Shown: in pieces, positions 8 through 60,589 of the stretch
Numbering within the stretch: position 1 is the first letter of the stretch
Layout: each line of letters begins with the position of its first letter
DNA from: Minisyncoccota bacterium
GTDB taxonomy: Bacteria; Patescibacteriota; Minisyncoccia; Phycocordibacterales; BOKC01
Direction: 5' to 3'
NCBI GenBank assembly: GCA_030583745.1
Contig: CP129473.1
Span: forward strand, 140,551-204,550
DNA length: 64,000 bases
Made by a program: the position numbers and the translations under genes
Notes under the pieces: model-generated
What the model was told of the DNA's origin: nothing
What the model saw: the letters and a program-made list of their open reading frames with translations, nothing else
Databases searched by the model: none

Positions 8-60
8 CTATTGGCTATACCCTATACCCCAATCCCTAATTCAACCGTATTTCTCCCATC
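8..60. repeat. Dispersed tandem heptamer repeat (ACCCTAN)n copy A plus 24-bp match to the dprA 3' end
   Basis: cctattggctataccctataccccaatccctaattcaaccgtatttctcccatc; near-duplicate of 931..985. Confidence 0.7.
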
Positions 61-4048: not shown

Positions 4049-5038
4049 ATGCGGAAAAATTTTTGGCTAAATCTAGTGAAGCCGTTTTTTGTTTTGGCGC
4101 CAATGGCTGACGTGACCGACGTTGCTTTCAGGCGCATAATTGCTAAATATTCAAGACCTTTCGGCCCCGATGTTTTTTGGACGGAGTTTGTTTCGGCTGA
4201 CGGTCTTATTTTGGCTGATACAAAAGGCAGGAATAAACTTTTGAAAGATTTAACTTATTCGGAAAGTGAGCGGCCGATAGTCGCCCAGCTTTTTACTGCT
4301 CGACCGGAGATGATGGAAAAAGCAGCGAGATTGGTCTTGGAGCTTGGATTTGATGGTCTTGATATAAATATGGGCTGTCCTGATAGGGGAATAGAAAAAC
4401 AAGGAGCTGGCGCCGCTTTATGCAAGAAACCGGATTTGGCAAGGGAAATTATTAGAGCCGCAAAAAATGGGGTTTCAGATAAAATTCCAATTTCGGTAAA
4501 AATTCGGCTTGGTTACAACAAGGACGAACTTGATCCGCCAGTTGGTGGATGGTTGTCGGCAATTCTTGCCGAATCGCCAGCCGCTGTAACTATCCACGCT
4601 CGCACTAGAAAAGAGATGTCAAAAGTGCCGGCTAGGTGGGAGAGAGTTAAAAGAGCGGTGGAAATCAGAAATGAATTGAAAAGTAATTCGTTGATTATAG
4701 GTAACGGCGATGTCTTTGATTTGAACGATGCTAGAAAAAAAGCTGAAGAAACCGGAGCTGACGGCGTGATGCTTGGTCGGGCGATTTTTGGCAATCCGTG
4801 GTTATTTTCGGAAAAAGAACCAACCCCAGAAGAGCGCCTTAAAGTGCTTATTGAGCATATTAAACTTTTTGATGAATTACTTGGCAATACTAAAAACTTT
4901 TCGGTTATGAAAAAGCATTTCAAAGCGTATGTTAGCGATTGGGATGGAGCTAAAGAACTTCGAGAAAAACTTATGGAAACAGAGAGCGCAAAAGAGGCAG
5001 TTAGTGTTTTAAATAATTATCCAGCATTCAAACATTGA
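4049..5038 (+). CDS. dus: tRNA-dihydrouridine synthase
   Basis: LAPMADVTDVAFRRI ... DINMGCP ... TIM-barrel Dus motifs. Confidence 0.85.
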   Translation: MRKNFWLNLVKPFFVLAPMADVTDVAFRRIIAKYSRPFGPDVFWTEFVSADGLILADTKGRNKLLKDLTYSESERPIVAQLFTARPEMMEKAARLVLELGFDGLDINMGCPDRGIEKQGAGAALCKKPDLAREIIRAAKNGVSDKIPISVKIRLGYNKDELDPPVGGWLSAILAESPAAVTIHARTRKEMSKVPARWERVKRAVEIRNELKSNSLIIGNGDVFDLNDARKKAEETGADGVMLGRAIFGNPWLFSEKEPTPEERLKVLIEHIKLFDELLGNTKNFSVMKKHFKAYVSDWDGAKELREKLMETESAKEAVSVLNNYPAFKH

Positions 5039-5123
5039 CAGAATTCTTGGTTTTGTTATAATCTAAAAAGATTAGAGCAAGGCAAAAGGGCAAAAAGTGC
5101 CAAACAAGAAACAGGGAGGTCCC

Positions 5124-5411
5124 ATGCTGGTTTTGTCACGGAAGAAGGATCAAAAGATCGTCATCGAAGTCTTGAGGCCAGACGACACGACCGAACTCAT
5201 CGAGGTCACGATCGTGGATATTCGCGGAGATTCAGTTCGAGTCGGCATTGACGCTGATAAAGAACATAAAATCTTCTGCAAGGAAGATCTGGTTGAAGGC
5301 GCTCTTCCGAAAACTGGAAGCTGTCCGTCTAGGGCCGTTCAAAACTCGCGCAGTGCCACTGGGCCGAATCCTCCGAACCTCAAAGGTCGTACCATGCGGT
5401 TTGGTCGCTGA
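5124..5411 (+). CDS. csrA: CsrA-like carbon storage regulator with a C-terminal extension, GC-rich
   Basis: MLVLSRKKDQKIVI ... IEVTIVDIRGDSVRVGIDADKEHKIFCKE matches the CsrA fold pattern (MLILTRK...VRIGIEAPK...). RBS gggagg 6 nt upstream. ORF track start 5097. Confidence 0.55.
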   Translation: MLVLSRKKDQKIVIEVLRPDDTTELIEVTIVDIRGDSVRVGIDADKEHKIFCKEDLVEGALPKTGSCPSRAVQNSRSATGPNPPNLKGRTMRFGR

Positions 5412-5435
5412 AACAACCCAAAGAAGGAGGTGTTT

Positions 5436-5639
5436 ATGTTTCCGCCTCATTTTCCGCGTTTGGTTTTGGTGAGAGGGTATGAAGACTTCTTACCACCACC
5501 AGAAGTGGTGGCCGAACCCAAGCCCTTGCGAAGCAGAAGTGGTCGTTACCACCGATCGCCTCGGATACGAATCAGACATATGATGAATCCGAGGAAGAGG
5601 CGAAGTGGGCGACGTCGCTGTCGCAATCAGAAGTGGTAA
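5436..5639 (+). CDS. Small Arg-rich hypothetical protein
   Basis: RBS aaggagg 5 nt upstream of the ATG; highly basic C-terminus; no recognisable domain. Confidence 0.3.
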   Translation: MFPPHFPRLVLVRGYEDFLPPPEVVAEPKPLRSRSGRYHRSPRIRIRHMMNPRKRRSGRRRCRNQKW

Positions 5640-5731
5640 GGGTTGGCGGATGCCGGCCCAAATCCTGTTCCGTCAAGACGAGACGGACAGCGGAGCTGTC
5701 GTTTCCGAAAGTTTCCGAAAGGAGACCACGT

Positions 5732-5776
5732 ATGAAGCTCTGGCTTGTCGTTCTTTGCTACCTCGCTCTTTGCTGA
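5732..5776 (+). CDS. 14-aa hydrophobic peptide MKLWLVVLCYLALC
   Basis: RBS gaaaggag 7 nt upstream; immediately followed by two hairpins (terminator). Confidence 0.25.
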   Translation: MKLWLVVLCYLALC

Positions 5777-5831
5777 CCCCGCCATCCGGGTCAGCGTGAG
5801 GCCCCGCCGTTCGCACGGTGGGGTCTTTTTT
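5771..5831 (+). terminator. Tandem GC hairpins with a T-run (end of the first GC-rich transcription unit)
   Basis: ctgaccccgccatccgggtcag and ccccgccgttcgcacggtgggg then tctttttttt. Confidence 0.6.
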
Positions 5832-5859
5832 TGGCTAAAAATAAGGGTGTATTTCATTA

Positions 5860-5890
5860 TTGGCTATATCCCATACCCTAAACCCTAATT
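5860..5890. repeat. Dispersed heptamer repeat copy C
   Basis: ttggctatatcccataccctaaaccctaatt. Confidence 0.6.
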
Positions 5891-5934
5891 TATATTTGAC
5901 AAATAAAACGCTTTGTGCTAAGCTGTTAAGCAGA

Positions 5935-6421
5935 GGAGATAGAAAGAGGGAAGCGTAGTGCGACCCTCCAAATCAGCACATTGTTTAAGGGGGTGGTATG
6001 CCTTATTCCGGTTTTCCTCCGTAGCGGTCTGAATAAGACCGTCCGGAGGTGGAAGATGTTCGTTGCCCACGACTTCGAAAAGTCGCGGGCTGGATGTTAA
6101 CCTCAGAAAGAGGAGAACCCAAAATGCGGGTGATCATCGCTCTCCAGAACATCATTAACTGACCCGCGCGCCGCCGGCTTGGGCTGATCACATTGGGTGA
6201 TCGGCTCTGCCAGCCAAGAATTTGTGCTTTTCGCACAAATTCGCATTCTGGAAGGAGGTCTATGTGATCAAGAGTATTTGAGGGGCCGACCCCCACCCCT
6301 GCCGCAGGGTTAAGCGGTCCTTGCCAAGGGTCAAGGTGACGGCCTCTTCGCAGGCCAACCCTCAAACCAAACGTTGTTTGTACCGGGCCTCATCGCGCAC
6401 TATACGCGATGAGGCCTTTTT
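5935..6421 (+). ncRNA. Candidate GC-rich structured non-coding RNA, unknown family
   Basis: Promoter-like TTGACA-17-TAAGCT at about 5896..5925. About 490 nt with no ORF longer than 14 aa. Ends in a strong hairpin gggcctcatcgcgcactatacgcgatgaggcc plus T-run. Multiple GGA/AGGAGG motifs. Confidence 0.35.
6385..6421 (+). terminator. Rho-independent terminator
   Basis: gggcctcatcgcgc actata cgcgatgaggcc then ttttt. Confidence 0.7.
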
Positions 6422-6585
6422 CATTTTCATAATATCCCAAAAGGTTTATAATTCTTTGTATGAATCCAGTACGAAATCATAGTGTTATCAAATTAGGAAT
6501 TACTGGAAGAAGTGGAAATAGTGGTCGAATTAATTTAAATTTAATTTTTCAATACGGAAATTAAAAATTTCCTATTTCGTACGGG

Positions 6586-7638
6586 ATGAATGAAGAAATC
6601 GCTTTGTATAGAAAATACCGCCCGCAAAAATTTAGCGATGTTTTGGGGCAGGACCATATCGTCAAAGTTCTTGAGGGTTCGGTTCGCCTCAAAAGAATTT
6701 CGCACGCCTATCTTTTTACCGGCGCGCGAGGCACCGGCAAAACCAGTATTGCCAGAATTCTGGCCCGCGAGATCGGTTGCCAAGAAGAAGACCTTTACGA
6801 AATTGATGCCGCTTCAAACCGCGGTATAGACGACATTCGCGAGATTAAGCAATCAGTCTCGGCTTCGCCCTTTCGCTCACCCTATAAAGTTTATATCGTG
6901 GACGAAGTTCATATGTTGACTAAAGAAGCCGGGAACGCCCTTTTGAAAACTTTAGAAGAACCGCCTTCTTATGTTGTTTTTATTTTAGCCACCACCGAGC
7001 CGGACAAATTGCCAGAGACGGTTATTTCCCGTTGCCAAGTTTTTAATTTTAAAAGACCAAGCCAAGTTATTCTGCGTGATATGGTTTCGGCGGTTGCCAA
7101 AAAAGAGGGTTTTTCTCTTGAGCCATCGTCGGCTGATTTAATCTCTCTGCTTTCCGAGGGCTCTTTTCGCGACGCTCTGGGGATTCTGCAGAAAATTTTG
7201 AGTTTTTCCAAAGACAAGAAAATTTCTATTAAAGAAGTTGAAATGGTTACTGGCGCGCCGAAGGGTGAATTGGTCAACAAATTTATATCCTCAATCGCTA
7301 ATGGCGAATTAGAAAAAGGATTACAGGCGATTTCTGAAGTTGTGGGTCAGGATGTTGATATAAAGACATTTCTGAAAATTGTTTTGCAAAGAATCAGATT
7401 TACTCTGCTTTTGCGTCTGAAAGCCGGCTTGGATGAGGAAATTGAAAAAGAGTTGAAAAGTGAGGATTTCGAATTTCTTAAAAAATTGGCGGAGCAAAAA
7501 GATTCCAAAGTTAATTCTCATGCTTTACTAGAACTACTAGATGCTTACGAAAAAACAAACTCGTCACATATTGCGCAGTTGCCATTGGAGTTGGCGCTTG
7601 TAAAAATTCTCAAAAAAGATTCTGCTCTGGCCGAATAA
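6586..7638 (+). CDS. dnaX: DNA polymerase III subunit gamma/tau (short form)
   Basis: YRPQKFSDVLGQDHI ... TGARGTGKTS Walker A ... AAA+ clamp-loader motifs. Confidence 0.85.
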   Translation: MNEEIALYRKYRPQKFSDVLGQDHIVKVLEGSVRLKRISHAYLFTGARGTGKTSIARILAREIGCQEEDLYEIDAASNRGIDDIREIKQSVSASPFRSPYKVYIVDEVHMLTKEAGNALLKTLEEPPSYVVFILATTEPDKLPETVISRCQVFNFKRPSQVILRDMVSAVAKKEGFSLEPSSADLISLLSEGSFRDALGILQKILSFSKDKKISIKEVEMVTGAPKGELVNKFISSIANGELEKGLQAISEVVGQDVDIKTFLKIVLQRIRFTLLLRLKAGLDEEIEKELKSEDFEFLKKLAEQKDSKVNSHALLELLDAYEKTNSSHIAQLPLELALVKILKKDSALAE

Positions 7639-7699: not shown

Positions 7700-8014
7700 A
7701 TGGATACTTTAAATATCGGCATTAAGCCGAAAGAGCCAAAAAATGGCAAGGGAATAATTTGGGGCGCGATTGCCATCTTGGTGGTCGTTGCTTTGTTAAT
7801 TTTCTTTTTCTTTTTTATGCCCGCCGAAAAGCCGGCCTCGTCTTTGTTGACGGAGGAAGAAAAGCAGCAAGTCAGGGATGAGCTAGCGTTGCCGCCTTTG
7901 ATAGAAATTACTGAAGATATGGCTGAGGAAATTAAGATAGATCTCTCTTCGCCGCCGACGGAAGAGTTGACAGACGAGGAAAAGGAAAGAATCCGAGAAC
8001 AATTAAGAAACTAA
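7700..8014 (+). CDS. Small membrane protein, hypothetical
   Basis: Single TM IIWGAIAILVVVALLIFFFFF followed by an acidic tail. Confidence 0.4.
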   Translation: MDTLNIGIKPKEPKNGKGIIWGAIAILVVVALLIFFFFFMPAEKPASSLLTEEEKQQVRDELALPPLIEITEDMAEEIKIDLSSPPTEELTDEEKERIREQLRN

Positions 8015-8047
8015 TTTTATAAATTTTATTAATCGTAAATAGAGAAT

Positions 8048-9976
8048 ATGCAAAAAATCAATTTTAAAATAATCGCTCTGGGACTGATTGTCGGTTTAGC
8101 CGGCATTGTCGGAGTAAATTATGTTTTAGCTCAATGGTCAGCGCCAGACGAAGCGCCTCCTGAAGGTAATGTTTTTGTGCCCGTGAATGTAGGGGATAAA
8201 CCTCAAGATAAAAATGGTGTATTTAGAGCAAACGGTTTGCGTTCTTTTGTTGATTTGTATGTAGACGAAAAAGTTGGTATTGGAACCACTAATCCGAATA
8301 CCAAATTACATATAGTTGGCAACGATGGTGTTCAAATTCAGAGAGCCAACAATTCAGGTTTTGCTAATGTTTATTTCAGAACCGGTACAGATGATAACAC
8401 TAGATCATCCATTGGTTTTATACCGGCAGGAGGGGCTAATGATTTAGTTTTTAGAGTAGGTAATTTAGTTGAAAGAATGAGAATCACTTCTGCCGGCAAT
8501 GTTGGAATCGGGACAACAAATCCCGGGGCGAGGTTAGAGGTTAACGGTCAAGTTAAAATTACCGGCGGCTCACCCGGAGCCGGTAGGGTTCTGACTTCCG
8601 ATGCAGCCGGTTTGGCAAGTTGGGCCACTCCTTCCGGTGGATTGCCTGGTGGAAGCTCTAATCAGACACTTCGTCATGACGGTAGTGGCTGGATAGCAAG
8701 CAATAATATAAAAAATAACGGAACAAACGTAAATATAGGTCCTGATGGCCTGACTAGCGATCGTCTTAGGGTTCAGGGACATTTAAATATTTCAGGCAAC
8801 GGAATTTTGAAAACAAACGGAAACAGCGGAACAACAGGTCAAGTCCTTACTCGGACAGATTCAGGGATGGCTTGGGAAACACCGGTTGGTGGTGGCGGTT
8901 CAAATTTCTGGACTCAATCTGGAAATTTACTTTTTCCAAATAATACAGCATGGAATGTTGGTTTAGGAATTAATACTCCAAGTTCAAAATTGCATATAAA
9001 AGATAGCGAAAATATCTTAACTAGAATTGATAGCGCTAATGCAAATCAACAAGCCGCCATATCTTTTGACGATAGGGGATCTTCTAAATTTATAATTGGT
9101 AAGCAGACAAACAACGGCTTCTTTATGTGGAACAATAAAGGTGGAAATCAAGGATCTTTTGATTTTCTGACCTCATCTCCGACTGGTCCCCTGTCTCTGC
9201 GTAGCCAAGGATTACTTTCTTTAAATGCTAATCTAAGTGACGCTGGCCTCCCAGGTATTATATCTTTCAGAACTCAAGACGTAGCTCGTATGGCAATTGG
9301 AGTGGGGGGAGGTTTAGCAATTGGACCTAATCCAGACAGTGTGGATACTACTGGTAGACGTTTATTTGTTTATGGCTCTGGAAACACTGTATTTAGGCAT
9401 GTCGCGGGCGATAGCACGGGAGAAACATCAATTGACCTTGTCACTACGGGGCAAGGTGGTGGTTCCGGACACAATCTAAGTAAAAACTGGTCTATTATAT
9501 CGAGGGGTAATAGCTATATTCCTGCCGGAGAAAGAAATGATCTGTTATTCTCATTTTATGACGGACCTGCTGGCGGTCAATGGACTGAAGGAATGCGTCT
9601 CAAAAGAAACGGAGATCTGCACGATTTAAGGGTGACAGGTGATGTTTATGCTAAAAATTTTAATCAATCCTCTGACGCCAATCTCAAAACTAACATCCAA
9701 AATCTTTCCGACTCGTTGGCAAAAATTATTGAACTTCGGGGCGTAACTTTCAACTGGAAAAATCGGGTTGATGAAAAAGAAAACATCGGCTTCATCGCTC
9801 AAGAAATTGAAAAGATTTTCCCTGAACTAGTTCATGGCGAAGACGGCCAAAAAAGCGTAAATTACGTCTCTTTGGTCCCTGTCCTAGTTGAAGCGGTCAA
9901 AGAGCTTGATGAAAAGAATAAAGAGCTTGAAGCTCGTCTTGAAAAACTGGAAAAAAGATTGGGAATCAGTTTTTAA
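8048..9976 (+). CDS. Secreted fibre/tail-fibre-like protein with a C-terminal intramolecular-chaperone (peptidase S74-like) domain
   Basis: Signal/TM, repeated GIGTTNP..KLH(I/V).G motifs, and a C-terminus NIQNLSDSLAKIIELRGVTFNWK...IGFIAQEIEKIFPELV...VNYVSLVPVLVEAVKEL typical of the endosialidase chaperone domain. Confidence 0.7.
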   Translation: MQKINFKIIALGLIVGLAGIVGVNYVLAQWSAPDEAPPEGNVFVPVNVGDKPQDKNGVFRANGLRSFVDLYVDEKVGIGTTNPNTKLHIVGNDGVQIQRANNSGFANVYFRTGTDDNTRSSIGFIPAGGANDLVFRVGNLVERMRITSAGNVGIGTTNPGARLEVNGQVKITGGSPGAGRVLTSDAAGLASWATPSGGLPGGSSNQTLRHDGSGWIASNNIKNNGTNVNIGPDGLTSDRLRVQGHLNISGNGILKTNGNSGTTGQVLTRTDSGMAWETPVGGGGSNFWTQSGNLLFPNNTAWNVGLGINTPSSKLHIKDSENILTRIDSANANQQAAISFDDRGSSKFIIGKQTNNGFFMWNNKGGNQGSFDFLTSSPTGPLSLRSQGLLSLNANLSDAGLPGIISFRTQDVARMAIGVGGGLAIGPNPDSVDTTGRRLFVYGSGNTVFRHVAGDSTGETSIDLVTTGQGGGSGHNLSKNWSIISRGNSYIPAGERNDLLFSFYDGPAGGQWTEGMRLKRNGDLHDLRVTGDVYAKNFNQSSDANLKTNIQNLSDSLAKIIELRGVTFNWKNRVDEKENIGFIAQEIEKIFPELVHGEDGQKSVNYVSLVPVLVEAVKELDEKNKELEARLEKLEKRLGISF

Positions 9977-29988: not shown

Positions 29989-30072
29989 AAAGTAGGAAAA
30001 GTCTGGGTGGCGAGCGAAGGCGTCGGCAAGGGGGTTGAGTTTGTGGTGGAATTACCAACAACTAGGGTCTAG
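29989..30072 (+). pseudogene. 3' fragment of a histidine kinase gene (HATPase_c C-terminus only)
   Basis: KVWVASEGVGKGVEFVVELPTTRV* parallels the C-terminus of the 26872 kinase (RVWVESEGEGKGSEFIAELP); no start codon; stops upstream. Confidence 0.5.
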
Positions 30073-30112
30073 GGGTTAGGGTATAGGGTTTGGCCACTAG
30101 CCAATAGGGCGG
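30062..30112. repeat. Dispersed heptamer repeat copy D (inverted orientation)
   Basis: Reverse complement ccgccctattggctagtggccaaaccctataccctaacccctagaccctag. Confidence 0.6.
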
Positions 30113-51601: not shown

Positions 51602-52837
51602 ATGCGTTCAGATAGCAAAATGAATCCTTCGCTTGCTAAAAAAATAAAAAACCTGCCGGATTCTCCTGGTGTTTATTTATTTTCAGCGAGAGGGGGTAAA
51701 ACGGAAGACGAAAAAATTCTTTATATTGGTAAAGCCACGTCTCTTCGGAACAGGGTAAGAAGTTATTTTAATGGAAACTTATTATTTTCTCGCGGCCCCT
51801 TGATTGCCAAGATGGTTGAGGAAATAAAAAATATAAAGTATCAAAAAACCGATTCTGTCCTTGAGGCGCTTATCTTAGAGGCCAATTTAATTAAAAAATA
51901 CAAACCGAAATACAATACTCAAGAAAAAGATGACAGGAGTTGGAATTATATTGTGATAACCGACGAAGATTTCCCTAGAATTCTCACCATCCGCCAAAAA
52001 GAACTCGCCCTAGACCCTAAACCCTATACCCTAATGGCTAGCTTCGGTCCTTTCCCCCACGGAAACCAATTAAAAGAGGCCTTGAGAATTCTTAGAAAAA
52101 TCTTTCCTTTCTACTCGAGCGACACAAAAAACACCCAAGGTGAAAGATTTTACAAAGAAATAGGATTGGCTCCAAACCAAAACAAATCTGACTATCAAAA
52201 AACAATTAGTCATCTAAAACTCTTCCTTGAGGGTAAGAAAAAACAAATTATTTTTAATCTAGAAAAAGAGATGATGGGTGAAGTCAAAAAACTCAATTTT
52301 GAAAAAGCGGGGGAGTTGAGAAACAAAATATTTGCTTTAAAACACATACAAGACATTGCCTTACTGAAGAATTTGGATGAAAGTGGTGTAGACCAAGGGA
52401 ATTTTCGAATAGAATCTTATGACGTGGCACATATTTCAGGGACATTTATGGTTGGCGTGATGGTTGTCCTTGAAGAAGGAATTTTCAAAAAAAGTCAGTA
52501 CAGAAAATTTAAAATAAAAAAAACAGAAGGAGGCGACACATCAGCTCTATCTGAAATTATCGATAGAAGATTTAACCACGCCGAATGGCAGATGCCAAAT
52601 CTTGTCTGCGTTGATGGCGGAATAGCACAAAAAAACGTAGCAGAAAAAATTTTAAGAAAAAAAGATTTATTCATTCCGGTAGTTTCAGTTGTTAAAGACA
52701 AAAAACACAAACCGAAACAAATCCTCGGGGATAGAAAAACGATTGGTAATCGGCAAAAAGAGATTCTTCTCATCAATCAAGAAGCTCATCGTTTCGCCTT
52801 ATCTTTTCATAAAAAATTGAGAGACAAAATTAATTGA
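51602..52837 (+). CDS. uvrC: Excinuclease ABC subunit C, short form lacking the C-terminal HhH domain
   Basis: GIY-YIG N-terminus GVYLF..ILYIGKA; UVR domain; RNase H-like endonuclease region. Confidence 0.8.
   Translation: MRSDSKMNPSLAKKIKNLPDSPGVYLFSARGGKTEDEKILYIGKATSLRNRVRSYFNGNLLFSRGPLIAKMVEEIKNIKYQKTDSVLEALILEANLIKKYKPKYNTQEKDDRSWNYIVITDEDFPRILTIRQKELALDPKPYTLMASFGPFPHGNQLKEALRILRKIFPFYSSDTKNTQGERFYKEIGLAPNQNKSDYQKTISHLKLFLEGKKKQIIFNLEKEMMGEVKKLNFEKAGELRNKIFALKHIQDIALLKNLDESGVDQGNFRIESYDVAHISGTFMVGVMVVLEEGIFKKSQYRKFKIKKTEGGDTSALSEIIDRRFNHAEWQMPNLVCVDGGIAQKNVAEKILRKKDLFIPVVSVVKDKKHKPKQILGDRKTIGNRQKEILLINQEAHRFALSFHKKLRDKIN
52008..52041. repeat. Dispersed heptamer repeat copy E, located in-frame inside uvrC
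   Basis: ccctagaccctaaaccctataccctaatggctag encodes LDPKPYTLMAS. Confidence 0.55.
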
Positions 52838-56007: not shown

Positions 56008-56286
56008 ATGCGCACAGCAGAAGAAGTCATGATGCGCTGCAAGCTCATCCTCGATCAGCCGGACATCGTCCTTCTGGTCGATAAGAGCAGCAGTCCAACG
56101 GCGGCCTACGACATGGTCATGGACGCAACCCACAACGACGAGACCGCGAAAGCGGCTCGCTGGCTCGGCGTATTGAGAAGGGATTACCCCGATCGCTACG
56201 CCGAAATCACCCACAACACTCTCAGCCACGTTCAGAGGAACACGGCGAGGAAAGGAGAACGGAATGAAAACGACGTATGCAGTTGA
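56008..56286 (+). CDS. Small hypothetical protein (92 aa)
   Basis: RBS aaaggagg upstream of the ATG; overlaps the next gene by 23 nt. Confidence 0.4.
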   Translation: MRTAEEVMMRCKLILDQPDIVLLVDKSSSPTAAYDMVMDATHNDETAKAARWLGVLRRDYPDRYAEITHNTLSHVQRNTARKGERNENDVCS

Positions 56287-57586
56287 CCTACTCCACAGTC
56301 CTTCTGATGGAACGACGGTTGTGCTCTACGGTTGGGTGAAAGCCCGCCGGCGACATAATCACGTCGTTTTTCTGGACATCACGGACTCCACTGGTTCGGT
56401 GCAGTGTGTGGTCGAAGCTGGCAACAAGCCCGCTTTTGAACTCGCGCGGCGCATGAACCAGGAAACGGCGGTTAAGATCACTGGTGTCCTTGCGGATACT
56501 GGCCGAGCGAACCCGCAGCGGGAAATCCGCGTCGACAATATCGAGGTCATCGGCGTGAGCACCATCAGTGTCTCTCCGTATCCGCGGGGAAACATCGACA
56601 TTCAAGACCCGAGGTTGCAGGAGCAACTTTTGGACAAGCGGCATTTCTATCTCCGCAACGAGAAATTTGCCGCCATCCTGAAGTTTCGTCACGTCCTCAC
56701 AAGGATCGTGCATCAATGGTTCCATGAGAATGGGTTCATTGAGATCCACGCTCCGGTGCTGACACCAACGCCGCTGTACGACGATCGTACGGCTATGGCA
56801 ATCAAGGTACATGAGCAAGATGTATACCTGACACAGTGTGTTGGGTTCTATCTCGAACAAGCAGTTCATGCTCTCGAGAAGATCTACAACATCGGTCCCA
56901 GCTTCCGCGCCGAGGAGAGCCGCTCCAAGAGACATCTCATGGAGTACTGGCACATCAAGGCAGAGTTGGCGTTCGTGGACTTTGAGGACATGGCCTCAGT
57001 AGTCGAGCGGTTCATCCATGATGTGAGCGAGCAGTGTATCCGCGAGGGTCGCGAGCTTGCAAACATTATCGGCACCGAGATATGTGGCGACGGACTTAAA
57101 ACTCCGTTTCCGCGCATTGACTACGCCGAGGCGGTGGAGTGGCTCAAGACGCAGGGTTCCGATATTGAGTTTGGCAAAAGCATGGGTTCCGACGAGGAAA
57201 CTATGCTCTGCCAGCGGTTCGGCGACACTCCGTTTTGGATTGTCGGCATTCCACGACCCATCGAACCCTTTCCTTATGTGATTGACGCAGCCGATACTCG
57301 TCGAACGAAGACGGCTGATTTGATCGCAAGTCGAGGGTTTGGTGAGCTTCTCGGTATTGCCGAGAAGATTCATTCTCTGTCGATGCTCGATGAGCGGCTG
57401 GCAGAGAAAGGTAAAGCCGGTGACGCCCGCTACGAATGGTTGCGGGACCTTCGTCAATACGGTTGTGTACCGCACGGAGGGTTTGGTATGGGGCTTGAAC
57501 GGTTCATCCGTTGGCTCTTGCAGATCCCGCATGTGCGAGACACCATTCCTTTTCACCGAGCGTTCAGTAGGAGGATTGATCCATGA
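56264..57586 (+). CDS. Class IIb aminoacyl-tRNA synthetase paralog, AsnRS-like (archaeal/eukaryal type)
   Basis: N-terminal OB fold VVLYGWVKARRRHNHVVFLDITD; motif 2 FRAEESRSKRHLMEYWHIKAE; motif 3 GGFGMGLERF. Confidence 0.7.
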   Translation: MKTTYAVDLLHSPSDGTTVVLYGWVKARRRHNHVVFLDITDSTGSVQCVVEAGNKPAFELARRMNQETAVKITGVLADTGRANPQREIRVDNIEVIGVSTISVSPYPRGNIDIQDPRLQEQLLDKRHFYLRNEKFAAILKFRHVLTRIVHQWFHENGFIEIHAPVLTPTPLYDDRTAMAIKVHEQDVYLTQCVGFYLEQAVHALEKIYNIGPSFRAEESRSKRHLMEYWHIKAELAFVDFEDMASVVERFIHDVSEQCIREGRELANIIGTEICGDGLKTPFPRIDYAEAVEWLKTQGSDIEFGKSMGSDEETMLCQRFGDTPFWIVGIPRPIEPFPYVIDAADTRRTKTADLIASRGFGELLGIAEKIHSLSMLDERLAEKGKAGDARYEWLRDLRQYGCVPHGGFGMGLERFIRWLLQIPHVRDTIPFHRAFSRRIDP

Positions 57587-57638
57587 GTACCACATACGCC
57601 AAGCCAATCACGGCAAGGCATACCAAAAGGAGAACATC

Positions 57639-58946
57639 ATGCAAAGAACACTGATCAAGCAACTCGGATCCGAGGTCGGCAAGACCGTTCGGATCTGCGG
57701 ATGGGTGGGAACGTTCCGCGATCAAAAGCGGATGCAATTCATTATCGTCCGTGACCACACCGGCAATGTACAGGTGGTGCACGAGAAGTCGGCAAACGCC
57801 GAACTGACGGCAACAATCGCCAGCCTCACATCCGAAAGCGCAGTGGAAATCATCGGCAAGGTTATTGCCAATCCTATGGTCAAGCTGGGCGGGATGGAAG
57901 TGATGGCCGAATCAGTGAACATCGTCAGCAAGGCGGAAGCACTTCTGCCGTTTGGCGAAAGCCCGACCATCGAAACTCGACTGGACTGGAGATTTCTGGA
58001 CCTGCGTACTCCGCAGAACCTACTGATCTTCAAGATTCAGACGGCGGCCGAACACGCTATGCGTTCGTTCTGGACGGCGGAGGGGTTCATCGAGATGCAC
58101 TCCCCGAAGTTCATGGGTAGCGCAAGCGAGTCCGGTGCGGAGCTCTTCGAGGTAAAGTACTTCGACCGCAAGGCGTATCTCGCTCAGTCGCCTCAGTTTT
58201 ACAAACAGATGGCGATGACGGCGGGGTTCGACCGCGTGTTCGAGATCGGGCCGGTCTTTCGGGCCAACCCGTCCTTCACTTCGCGGCACGACACGGAGTT
58301 CACCAGCGTGGACGTCGAAATCTCGTGGATTGACTCCCACGAGGACGTCATGCAGCTTGAGGAACGTTGGCTTCGCCATGTGCTTCAGGTGGTGAAAGCC
58401 GAGTACGGCGAGGAGATCAAGGCGACGTTCGGCACGGAGATCACGGTTCCCGAGCTTCCGTTTCCGCGTGTGACTATGGAAGAGGCGTACAACATCCTCG
58501 ACCAGATGGGTCACCGAATCGAGCGGGGCGAAAAGGGCGACCTCGATCCGGAGGGCGAGCGACTCTTGTGTCGACACTTCCACGAGAAGACCGGCCACGA
58601 GTTCGTCTTCGTCACCGAGTACCCTGCTGTGGTGCGAGCGTTCTACCACATGCGTCCCGAAGGAAAACCCCATCTCACTAAGAGCTTCGACCTTCTCTGG
58701 AAGGGACTTGAAGTGACGACAGGGGCGCAAAGGGAGCATCGCTACGAGATCTTGGTGGAGCAAGCCAAGGAGAAGGGGCTCTTGCTTGAGCCCATCCAGT
58801 ACTATCTGGACTTCTTCCGCTACGGCTGTCCGCCTCACGGCGGTTATGGCTTCGGTCTCACCCGTATGCTCATGGTGATGCTGAGCGCGAAAAGCGTGCG
58901 TGAGGTGACGTACCTCTACCGAGGCGTCAACCGACTCACTCCGTAA
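57639..58946 (+). CDS. aspS: Archaeal-type aspartyl-tRNA synthetase, GC-rich xenolog; motif 2 is FRAN rather than FRAE
   Basis: OB fold; YFDRKAYLAQSPQFYKQMAM; FRANPSFTSRHDTEF; GGYGFGLTRM. RBS aaaaggagaac upstream. ORF track start 57339. Confidence 0.75.
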   Translation: MQRTLIKQLGSEVGKTVRICGWVGTFRDQKRMQFIIVRDHTGNVQVVHEKSANAELTATIASLTSESAVEIIGKVIANPMVKLGGMEVMAESVNIVSKAEALLPFGESPTIETRLDWRFLDLRTPQNLLIFKIQTAAEHAMRSFWTAEGFIEMHSPKFMGSASESGAELFEVKYFDRKAYLAQSPQFYKQMAMTAGFDRVFEIGPVFRANPSFTSRHDTEFTSVDVEISWIDSHEDVMQLEERWLRHVLQVVKAEYGEEIKATFGTEITVPELPFPRVTMEEAYNILDQMGHRIERGEKGDLDPEGERLLCRHFHEKTGHEFVFVTEYPAVVRAFYHMRPEGKPHLTKSFDLLWKGLEVTTGAQREHRYEILVEQAKEKGLLLEPIQYYLDFFRYGCPPHGGYGFGLTRMLMVMLSAKSVREVTYLYRGVNRLTP

Positions 58947-59272: not shown

Positions 59273-60589
59273 ATGCAGAGACTTCATATAAACGAAATTA
59301 AAGAACATATTGGAAAAAAGGTTAAGATTGCTGGTTTCGTCCAGACTATACGCGATCAAGGGAGCATCAAGTTTCTTCTGATACGCGACATTACGGGAGT
59401 TATTCAAGTTGTGGTCACCAAACATAGCCCCGATGCTTTAGCTATAGCAAAAACTCTTACTCACGAATCAATAGTGGAAATCGTTGGTTTAGCTAAGGAG
59501 GAAAAGCAAGCTCCTGGAGGTTTTGAAATTGAAGTAGAAAAACTCATAATTTTATCTCTTGCCGACCCAGAACTACCGATACCGATTATAGTGAAGGGAC
59601 AGCAAGGAGAAACAGAACAATCAATACGTCTTGATTGGCGTTGGATTGATCTGCGCAAGCCTCAAGGGTCACTCACATTCAAGGTATGGACCGAGCTTGA
59701 AGCAGCTTTCCGCGAATTTTGGACAAAAAACGGTTATATAGAAATACATTCTCCGAAACTAATTTCTACCGCAAGTGAGTCCGGTGCGGAAGTATTCGAG
59801 GTTAAATACTTTGATCGCAAGGCATATCTAGCTCAATCTCCGCAATTCTACAAACAGATGGCGATGTCAGCTGGATTTGAAAGAGTTTTTGAAGTCGGAC
59901 CGGTGTTCAGAGCGGAGCCATCATTTACATCGCGACATGCCACAGAGTTTACTGGTTATGACGCTGAAATATCATACATTGAGTCTCATGAAGACGTAAT
60001 GCAAGAGGAAGAGAAGGTTATCCAATTCGCCGTCAGTAAGGTAAAGGAGAAATTCGGCGAGGAAATAAAACAGGTTTTCGCCAGAGAAGTCGTAGCCCCG
60101 ACACTTCCATTCCCTAGATTGACTATCAAAGAGGCTAAAACGATACTTACCGAAATGGGCGTAACCGGAGAAAAGGACGGGGACTTGTCGTCAGAAGAAG
60201 AACGCAAGATTGGTGAGTATGTAATGAATACATTTGGCCATGAGTTTGTGTTTATCACTGAATATCCAGCAAAAGATCGTGCTTTCTATCATATGCGCGA
60301 TGAAAATGATAAAACTCTCACAAAAGGTTTTGACCTTCTTTGGAACGGTCTTGAAGTAACCACTGGCGCTCAACGAGAACATCGCTACGATGTGCTTGTA
60401 AAGCAGGCGAAAGAGAAAGGAATGGATTTAGAGTCTTTGAAATTCTATTTAAACTTCTTTAAGTACGGCTGTCCTCCACACGGCGGCTTCGGTATGGGGC
60501 CAAACAGGATGATTATGAAATTGCTCGGCATAGACAATGTACGAGACGCGATGTTTATCTACCGCGGAGTAAAACGCCTTGAACCATAA
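59273..60589 (+). CDS. aspS: Archaeal-type aspartyl-tRNA synthetase (intermediate-GC copy with a T-box leader, enclosed by the terminal inverted repeats)
   Basis: FRAEPSFTSRHATEF; GGFGMGPNRM; about 80% nucleotide identity to the GC-rich copy over conserved blocks, with third-position differences. Confidence 0.85.
   Translation: MQRLHINEIKEHIGKKVKIAGFVQTIRDQGSIKFLLIRDITGVIQVVVTKHSPDALAIAKTLTHESIVEIVGLAKEEKQAPGGFEIEVEKLIILSLADPELPIPIIVKGQQGETEQSIRLDWRWIDLRKPQGSLTFKVWTELEAAFREFWTKNGYIEIHSPKLISTASESGAEVFEVKYFDRKAYLAQSPQFYKQMAMSAGFERVFEVGPVFRAEPSFTSRHATEFTGYDAEISYIESHEDVMQEEEKVIQFAVSKVKEKFGEEIKQVFAREVVAPTLPFPRLTIKEAKTILTEMGVTGEKDGDLSSEEERKIGEYVMNTFGHEFVFITEYPAKDRAFYHMRDENDKTLTKGFDLLWNGLEVTTGAQREHRYDVLVKQAKEKGMDLESLKFYLNFFKYGCPPHGGFGMGPNRMIMKLLGIDNVRDAMFIYRGVKRLEP

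Follow-up and report, generated by a model that had tools for sequence, protein, structure and literature searches.

What does a gene of the CsrA family tell us about the GC-rich, seemingly non-coding DNA that lies beside it? The question is raised by the interval between dus (4049-5038) and dnaX (6586-7638) in a 64,000-nt stretch of contig CP129473.1 (hereafter the window, to which positions refer unless otherwise stated), from a low-GC genome of the Paceibacteria (Patescibacteria, or candidate phyla radiation, CPR). A sequence-only reading of this DNA suggested that the interval could be a horizontally acquired module made up of a csrA-like gene and its cognate decoy small RNA (sRNA), with another structured RNA as the fallback. 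Our analysis speaks against the decoy and for the fallback. The account that we favour, albeit tentatively, is that of a clade-specific locus of small open reading frames (ORFs) and structured RNA, in which the tiny ORFs would be controlled by sequestration of their Shine-Dalgarno (SD) sequences and the inserted CsrA homologue would serve as a translational repressor in cis.

The island (5066-6425) has a GC content of 51.8%, compared with 40.1% for the window, and both the spacer between its halves and the dnaX leader stand at 28-30%; the earlier description of a GC-rich, two-part island is thus upheld. It is predicted to consist of two transcription units, each running from promoter to terminator (Table 1). 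In unit 1, promoter P1 is followed by the csrA-like gene, a gene for an Arg-rich small protein, a hydrophobic micropeptide ORF and an intrinsic terminator, the latter with a second hairpin ahead of it, as the sequence-only reading had it. Unit 2 has its own promoter, P2 (the TTGACA-17-TAAGCT element recognized earlier, which the consensus rule of the promoter scanner misses, the -10 having 3/6 matches), a structured RNA containing a conserved small ORF (sORF), and the strong terminal hairpin that had also been noted. The order dus-island-dnaX is kept in all strains (L001, L003 and L009 are further haplotypes of the window's species), and two sister species have related loci. One of these (L015/L178/L179) comprises 'Candidatus Paceibacter sp.', the closest species-level relative as judged by Dus (75% identity), and a 65-kb Joint Genome Institute (JGI) contig; the other (L180) is a Logan contig that was reached through its Dus protein. 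In both, dus is followed by the promoter (the same as P1 in L015/L178; TTGACA-17-TATACT in L180), the Arg-rich ORF, hairpins A and B, the micropeptide, a terminator, P2 (kept as TTGACA-17-TAACCT, while the spacer diverges), unit 2 with its sORF, a second terminator and dnaX. The unit 2 terminator occurs in two allele classes with fully compensated stems.

The decoys of the CsrA/RsmA system in the Gammaproteobacteria (CsrB, CsrC, RsmY and RsmZ) present a GGA approximately every 15-20 nt, for the most part in the loops of hairpins, and are not peptide-coding. The locus resembles these systems in that a PF02599 protein lies near a structured RNA, by prediction separately transcribed, with a Rho-independent terminator. 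However, unit 2, which had been described as GGA-rich, has only 8 GGA in 493 nt (one per 62 nt), against 10.5 ± 2.4 in dinucleotide shuffles. Related motifs are likewise at chance (AGGA, 3 versus 2.5; A.GGA, 2 versus 2.3), and the reverse strand has 7 GGA. None of the hairpin loops that were read (GUAGU, GAAUA, CGAA, AGAAA, AUUGG and UUUUC) shows a GGA, the conserved ones residing instead in SD-like GGAG strings. Since motif density, loop display, Rfam membership and co-occurrence with csrA at the locus all speak against it, the decoy model fails, and we consider it decidedly unlikely that unit 2 sequesters the adjacent CsrA-like protein as a CsrB/RsmZ-like decoy within one acquired module. 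What can be said for this idea, beyond the juxtaposition of the two elements, is that five GGAs are conserved in SD-like strings, two of them 14 nt apart in an invariant, probably single-stranded 5' leader; that one site in the window, CUGGAUGU (6090-6097), resembles the consensus from systematic evolution of ligands by exponential enrichment (SELEX), although it is lost in L001; and that the CsrA-core and sORF alleles co-vary across four haplotypes, albeit as only two independent classes. Set against these points are the sORF within unit 2, the atypical nature of the window's CsrA allele and the presence of unit 2 in species with no csrA at the locus, all of which are described below. In a weaker version, the CsrA-like protein may bind a few SD-like GGAs in unit 2. 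As a practical caution, a GC-rich gap beside csrA is insufficient grounds for calling a decoy sRNA.

The csrA gene is absent from the dus-dnaX locus of both L178 and L180, where homology to the window resumes ~35 nt ahead of the start codon of the Arg-rich gene. Because both sisters keep both units without csrA at the locus, the comparison indicates that units 1 and 2 are older than the gene and that csrA and unit 2 were not acquired together; the gene was either inserted in the lineage of the window or lost from both sisters. At this locus it is found only in the window's species, where it looks like a lineage-specific addition. Among 5.8 billion clustered proteins there are only three close forms, namely, that of the window and two of 105-107 aa (P0002 and P0003), which are 57% identical to it inside 99%-identical flanks; all three sit in the same dus-CsrA-1.2 kb-dnaX arrangement. 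Dus-anchored scans of 160 Paceibacteria loci (80 from GTDB, L015-L094, and 80 from JGI metagenomes, L098-L177) showed that dus-dnaX synteny is common, with a gap of 30-2400 nt and unrelated cargo, and found no CsrA gene, nor any part of the island except in L015. Similarly, nhmmer and peptide regular expressions did not find the units outside the three species, and no second copy of the locus was found.

The assignment of the csrA-like ORF, which the sequence-only reading had called CsrA-fold behind the ribosome-binding site gggagg, is sound: residues 1-54 match Pfam PF02599 (E=8e-14; 51.8 bits against a gathering cutoff of 27), as do P0002 and P0003 by annotation, the protein matches PHROG 9500 ('CsrA-like regulator') and the N-terminus (MLVLSRKK) is canonical. 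Nevertheless, all three alleles fall below the cutoffs of the NCBIfam CsrA equivalogs (TIGR00202/NF002469; 33-40 bits against 70-73, with the window allele at 34 against 70). Moreover, 10/11 aligned sequences have Arg in the VHR.E motif, and the window allele alone has Cys there, reading IFCKE followed by the loss of four residues where the helix starts, whereas the 105-107-aa alleles keep HR. The alignment took in nine relatives together with CsrA of Escherichia coli and Bacillus subtilis. In bona fide CsrA, a domain-swapped homodimer that recognizes GGA in RNA, the RNA-binding residues are L2/L4/R6/R7 at the N-terminus and the Arg of this motif (R44 in E. coli), which is important according to alanine scanning. 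In view of the scores and of the Cys substitution with its 4-aa loss, we judge the protein to be a family member but not a standard CsrA, that is, a divergent and previously undescribed member of a known family. It is reminiscent of the CsrA paralogues of mobile elements (CsrT/LvrC of a Legionella integrative conjugative element, RsmQ of plasmid pQBR103 and phage PHROG 9500) in being a divergent extra homologue within DNA of atypical GC content in one lineage only; unlike these, it is accompanied by no integrase, conjugation or phage genes and lies inside a pre-existing host operon. A mobile-element origin of the island was considered and rejected, there being no blastn match in phages or plasmids, nothing related to CsrA or to the sORF motif in viral contigs and no PADLOC match. 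A perfect 11-nt inverted repeat links the region encoding the CsrA tail (5320-5330) to the 5' arm of hairpin B (5681-5691) and is invariant in all alleles; with ~0.4 such pairs expected by chance in 1.8 kb it may be fortuitous, and no use is made of it here.

The two further ORFs of unit 1 are those that had been proposed, and both bear signs of coding. In the Arg-rich ORF, every indel between strains is a multiple of 3, and its orthologues (66 aa in L015/L178 and 72 aa in L180) share the motifs GY[EQ]D[FL]LPP..EPK and KRR.SGR.R, such that protein motifs persist where the DNA has diverged. The protein belongs to no Pfam, NCBIfam, PHROG or PADLOC family; a word-indexed protein search gave no match, because gene callers rarely call this ORF, and an exhaustive HMMER search gave a single orthologue (P0011; E=3.5e-8), which led to L178. 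The micropeptide resembles a signal peptide with a lipobox in which the stop codon comes right after the Cys. Its homologues are MKLWLIVLCYLALC (L009, where 2/3 changed codons are synonymous), MIKFWLIVACFLALC (L178) and MMKLWLIIICYLALC (L180), the last two ORFs having 15 codons; length and the C-terminal LALC-stop are kept in the three species, and the peptide does not occur in 165 other Paceibacteria loci.

The 95-nt intercistronic leader ahead of the micropeptide is predicted to be strongly structured (z=-4.1 in the window). Hairpin A contains GGCGGAUGCC, which is invariant in the three species, and the changes in its stem are compatible with pairing (U.G to U-A or C-G). In hairpin B, the central C-GGA-G is invariant and the stem changes with pairing kept (AACGAC-GGA-GUCGUU in L178; UGGC-GGA-GCCA in L180). 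Immediately downstream, an anti-SD element is predicted to sequester the micropeptide SD, and equivalent pairings are seen in L178 (GUCU/AGAC) and L180 (UUCUCCU/AGGAGAA). We took as the signature of a CsrA-repressed leader at least two GGA sites 10-63 nt apart, of which one is looped out by a hairpin and the other overlaps the SD; the window has the GGAU loop of hairpin A, the GGA loop of hairpin B and GGAG in the SD (5721-5724), and the same arrangement is found in L178 and L180.

Unit 2 had been described as a non-coding transcript of ~490 nt. This holds for most of its length, which has no conserved ORF, but an sORF of 12-13 codons stays in frame in three species, so that unit 2 is not purely non-coding. 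Its orthologues, MGVIIALQNIIN (L009), MRVNLFHEMNIVN (L001), MRVNLFHEMNIVV (L003), MRVMNPFQLNIAN (L178) and MRVFMSFKNIIA (L180), follow the pattern MRV…NI.., with conserved ends and a hypervariable core. The SD/start context, GGAGAMCCCAAAAUGSGGGU, is invariant, changes in length preserve the frame, and synonymous variation is seen in the Ile codon and in 3/4 differences between L001 and L003. The alleles are as divergent within the species (74% identity) as between species (77% for the window and L180, and 79% for L001 and L178), and the terminator alleles show the same pattern; this equality is suggestive, although the sequences compared are very short. A second claim, that no ORF exceeds 14 aa, is correct for ATG ORFs led by an SD, but not if alternative starts are admitted (up to 53 aa, none conserved). 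Comparison of alleles revealed no conserved long ORF on either strand: a minus-strand ORF (6003-6365; 120 aa) was discarded as a gene, as it has no Pfam family and its frame is broken between alleles, while MFVAHDFEKSRAGC loses its ATG in L001 and the mini-ORF of the 3' domain (MIKSI; AUG-UGA) lacks a start codon in L178 and L180.

As to structure, unit 2 is predicted to be separately promoted, terminated and highly folded, in line with the fallback of the sequence-only reading. The Rfam search that it had called for gave no relevant match at the gathering threshold in the window, at E<=10 in 4900-6700, in 18 related loci or in L178, apart from terminator-like noise. Homologues of ~515 nt are present in L178 and L180 (nhmmer E=1e-112 and 7e-49 for the two sister species), and the three species have in common the promoter, the leader GCAGAGGAGAUAGAAAGAGG, the sORF start context, GAACAUY...UGA, CGNCGCCGGC, an AGGAGG element and the terminator; between these blocks, hairpins (H5 among them) lie at equivalent positions with different sequences. 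Both strands fold better than shuffles (z=-5.5 for the plus strand and z=-7.8 for the minus strand), as is expected of a chain of local hairpins; the promoter, the terminator and the G.U pairs of conserved helices all point to the plus strand. H1 varies between GAGGG/CCCUC and GAGGA/UCCUC, and the apex of H2 between CGGUCU-GAAUA-AGACCG and CCGAU-GAAUAA-AUCGG, while H3 occurs as three unrelated perfect stems with tetraloops (100% of cells pair, and both sides are changed in 4/9 pairs). RNAalifold finds double changes in 10/45 pairs of the 5' half. For H1, H2 and H3 together, pairing holds in 91.9% of cells (33-48% in controls with slid partners), and the covariation score is reached by 2/500 column shuffles; for six sequences from three species, we regard this as supportive, not conclusive. 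A long-range helix encloses the 3' domain, and its pairing is kept with both strands changed across the window, L001, L003, L009, L178 (CAGGAGG(U)GCC/GGCCUCCUG) and L180 (AAGAGAG/CUCUCUU); the hairpin inside it changes from CCUUG/CAAGG in the window to CCCAC/GUGGG in L003.

Table 1. Features of the dus-dnaX island, as read or predicted, with their positions in the window.
Feature	Position	Strand	Remarks
Promoter P1	5035-5062	+	TTGACA-16-TATAAT, TG-extended; 12/12 consensus match; -35 overlaps dus stop codon
CsrA-family ORF, 95 aa	5124-5411	+	SD GGGAGG; CsrA domain residues 1-54, then 38-aa low-complexity tail
Arg-rich small protein gene, 67 aa from ATG	5436-5639	+	Perfect SD AAGGAGGTG (5424-5432)
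Hairpin A	5640-5659	+	8-bp stem, GGAU tetraloop 5648-5651; in minimum free energy (MFE) fold of 4/4 variants folded
Hairpin B	5686-5700	+	GACAGC-GGA-GCUGUC, GGA triloop 5692-5694; stem varies, pairing kept
Anti-SD/SD hairpin	5711-5726	+	GUUUCC-GAAA-GGAGAC; MFE folds; predicted to sequester micropeptide SD
14-aa hydrophobic micropeptide ORF	5732-5776	+	MKLWLVVLCYLALC; strong SD in AAAGGAGA; ends directly after Cys
Intrinsic terminator, unit 1	5798-5834 (hairpin 5798-5827)	+	13-bp stem and U7; second hairpin 5771-5794 precedes
Heptamer array	5870-5889	+	CCCATA/CCCTAAA/CCCTAAT; immediately 5' of P2; member of dispersed family
Promoter P2	5896-5924	+	TTGACA (5896-5901)-17-TAAGCT (5919-5924), TGn-extended; read from sequence
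Unit 2 structured RNA, ~495 nt	5930-6425	+	5' purine leader GCAGAGGAGAUAGAAAGAGG (5930-5949); own promoter and terminator
Unit 2 helices	H1 5946-5968; H2 6016-6049; H3 6065-6090; H5 6181-6207; H6 6218-6242	+	Predicted folds, module-wise pair checks
Conserved sORF, 12 codons	6124-6162	+	MRVIIALQNIIN; SD GAGGAGA (6110-6116); hypervariable core
Long-range helix	6251-6349	+	SD-like GAAGGAGGUC (6251-6260) with GGCCUCUUC (6341-6349); encloses 3' domain
Mini-ORF in 3' domain	6265-6282	+	Strains of the window's species only
Intrinsic terminator, unit 2	6385-6425 (hairpin 6385-6417)	+	Strong hairpin

Other identities for unit 2 were tried. The guess, from synteny in the Firmicutes, that the RNA upstream of dnaX might be that of the signal recognition particle, transfer-messenger RNA or RNase P received no support from Rfam. 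Unit 2 as an antisense regulator of unit 1 was also rejected, since the best duplexes (-56, -53 and -57 kcal/mol) are no better than those with shuffled RNA (means of -59, -57 and -54 kcal/mol), and no targets of its 5' purine leader were found elsewhere in the window. What is found is an independent promoter and terminator (both predicted), a conserved structure and a conserved, by prediction translatable sORF in three species, which are the attributes of a dual-function RNA. Indeed, a multi-hairpin RNA of ~500 nt with a very short, SD-led ORF recalls Staphylococcus aureus RNAIII/hld (514 nt with a 26-aa ORF), SgrS/SgrT and B. subtilis SR1/SR1P. It differs from these in having no sequence or Rfam relationship and no target complementarity that we could find, and in that its sORF has only 12-13 codons and a hypervariable core.

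In the account that we tentatively favour, translation of the tiny ORFs would be set by RNA structure that sequesters the SD, and the CsrA-like protein would act in cis, repressing at GGA-loop/SD sites of the unit transcripts; unit 2 would be a dual-function RNA or mini-mRNA and not a GGA decoy. The best candidate CsrA sites are hairpins A and B plus the micropeptide SD, in a two-site mode like that of B. subtilis hag (with CsrA and FliW) or E. coli glgC, where a GGA in a loop and the GGA of the SD provide the geometry that is bridged by the CsrA dimer. Here, two GGA-in-loop hairpins and a GGAG SD lie within ~85 nt upstream of the micropeptide and, as in the FliW-type CsrAs, the protein has a C-terminal extension. 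We infer that the units are transcribed and their small ORFs translated, that the peptides may have a role in the cell and that the CsrA-like protein, if it binds as proposed, is probably a cis-encoded translational repressor. A number of observations weigh against this account. In contrast to hag and glgC, the sites are candidates by their sequence, and the neighbourhood is devoid of fliW and flagellin genes. Hairpins A and B are equally conserved in the two species without csrA at the locus, and may serve another factor or purely structural control. The window allele, in which Cys replaces the critical Arg and four residues are lost, may have weaker or different RNA-binding properties. Additionally, hairpin B is not the MFE conformer in 3/4 folds, where a helix over the micropeptide start takes its place, although because the two compete the leader may switch between conformers. 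Finally, the covariation statistics derive from three species and four haplotypes and are weak, as kin sequences can outscore shuffles without structure. Overall, the arrangement is best described as a variation on CsrA-type translational control and on sORF-bearing structured RNAs.

The flanking genes of the strains differ by ~1%, and parts of the island by far more: the CsrA core (5170-5289) is 53% divergent, with in-frame indels of 18 and 12 nt, the segment ~6016-6154 is about 20% divergent, and the 3' end (6301-6442) 24-35%. Because the divergent segments combine differently among strains, the island reads as a mosaic. Divergence of 20-53% within ~1% flanks suggests selection or recombination acting on tiny genes, and bears on the rival explanations. 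One of these is a type I-like toxin-antitoxin or addiction cassette, in which the micropeptide would be a membrane toxin silenced by mRNA structure, and the CsrA-like protein or the unit 2 RNA the antitoxin. In favour are the extreme hydrophobicity of the peptide and, by prediction, the sequestered SD and strongly structured leader of its ORF, much as in the ibs/sib, tisB/istR and hok/sok toxin mRNAs, and a strong promoter, the GC-rich, island-like segment and the strain-level hypervariability would suit a cassette. Yet the duplexes between units 1 and 2 do not outdo those with shuffled RNA, no minus-strand (antisense) promoter was found in the window's island, PADLOC gives no match, and the micropeptide is the last cistron of an operon that is fixed, as a single copy, at one syntenic site in three species. 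Moreover, at 14 aa it would be shorter than any type I toxin of which we know (Ibs has 18-19 aa), and overall we consider a cassette unlikely.

The hypervariability could alternatively mark a pherotype-like locus for strain recognition, with the sORF peptide and/or the lipobox-ended micropeptide as secreted signals and with allele classes under balancing selection. The conserved ends and hypervariable core of the sORF, the divergence of its alleles within the species to the level seen between species (shared by the terminator), the mosaic inside near-identical flanks, and the likeness of the micropeptide to a signal peptide ending at a lipobox Cys are all in keeping with this; but genes for a receptor, for processing or for export are missing from the locus, the sampling covers just two allele classes by way of very short sequences, and recombination with the sister species would explain the pattern without selection. 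We regard it as quite improbable. We give equally little credence to a bolder version, a strain-specificity module of CPR bacteria in which ancient alleles of a 12-13-aa peptide, carried by a 500-nt structured RNA, are matched to CsrA-like alleles and held by balancing selection and cross-species recombination, possibly with the 'signal-peptide-only' lipobox micropeptide as a second secreted product; if true, this peptide/RNA-protein system for recognition or addiction would be of an undescribed kind. Lastly, the atypical GC content, the loss of the key Arg from the window's CsrA allele and the variable cargo of the dus-dnaX gap across the Paceibacteria might be read as decaying foreign DNA or a functionless gene remnant. 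This is very improbable indeed, as promoters, SDs, ORF frames, terminators and helices are kept in three species (in spite of Dus being only 75% identical), with compensatory and synonymous changes.

Returning to the favoured account of SD sequestration and repression in cis, if it is true then a reduced genome, in which the region examined shows no flagellar genes and no Csr-type decoy, would have turned the fold of a global regulator to the local control of an operon. Quite apart from this, the locus offers a conserved, structured RNA of ~500 nt without a known family, two conserved micro-ORFs of 12-15 codons whose coding signatures are clear, and a ready-made contrast between versions of one site that have or lack an inserted CsrA homologue. 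As far as our sequence comparisons reach, neither the unit 2 RNA nor either micro-ORF has a relative on record, and their distribution is narrow, spanning three species; the hypervariability between strains is curious. To our knowledge, the regulatory RNAs and small proteins of the CPR/Patescibacteria have hardly been studied, and we found nothing relevant in the literature on CsrA in these organisms.

Several further observations concern the surroundings of the units. The heptamer repeat that had been noted between them is one of seven sites in the window (20-39, 930-956, 1863-1875, 5870-5889, 8766-8778(-), 30062-30088(-) and 52008-52034) of a dispersed CCCTAWA family, with 14 matches at <=2 mismatches against 1.7 expected. 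The arrays often adjoin ATTGGCTA, twice followed by TTCAACCGTATNTCCCCCATC, and whereas one lies directly 5' of P2, another is just before serS; CCCTAWA is a plant-telomere-like unit, and the arrays are possibly operators or a family of small repeat elements. Each terminator is followed by a copy of an imperfect direct repeat, TTTCATT-N6/7-ATATCCCA (5852-5873 and 6420-6440), so that unit 2 lies between the two copies; insertion or duplication of unit 2 could have left this trace, or it may be chance. In L178, an extra GC-rich insert of ~170 nt (6426-6606 of that contig) lies between the units, with its own promoter-like site (TTGACC-17-TAACAT) and nested inverted repeats (CCCCCACGCCT/AGGCGTGGGGG and ATTACCTGC/GCAGGTAAT); it has no Rfam match and a fold z of -2.0. 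Across the Paceibacteria, the dus-dnaX junction is a variable cargo site, often GC-richer than the genome, with cargo such as pairs of a small membrane protein and an Ala/Lys-rich protein, or large immunoglobulin-like surface proteins; in several genomes the gap is 'empty' (30-90 nt).

Downstream of the island, the window's dnaX has a 130-nt AT-rich leader behind TTTTCA-17-TATAAT (6424-6600). A 14-nt inverted repeat (6464-6477/6574-6587), if paired, would mask the dnaX SD together with its start codon. In the sisters, the dnaX ATG comes 7-8 nt after the TATAAT box (L178, 7149-7188; L180, ~5135-5160), a proximity that suggests a leaderless dnaX mRNA in these two species. Beyond dnaX (7700-9976 and onwards) are a small membrane protein (7700-8014) and a 642-aa protein with a Peptidase_S74-type C-terminus, 30-88% divergent between strains whose housekeeping genes are ~1% apart, which constitute a second hypervariable region, this one probably surface-exposed. 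The GC maximum of the window is not the island but a block at 56264-58946 (up to 57%), which contains two extra ORFs (440 and 535 aa) resembling class II asparaginyl- or aspartyl-tRNA synthetases (AsnRS/AspRS). They lie directly upstream of a paralogue of normal GC content (59273-60589; 438 aa) with which the 535-aa ORF has long identical motifs in common, and the block looks like a set of acquired synthetase paralogues.

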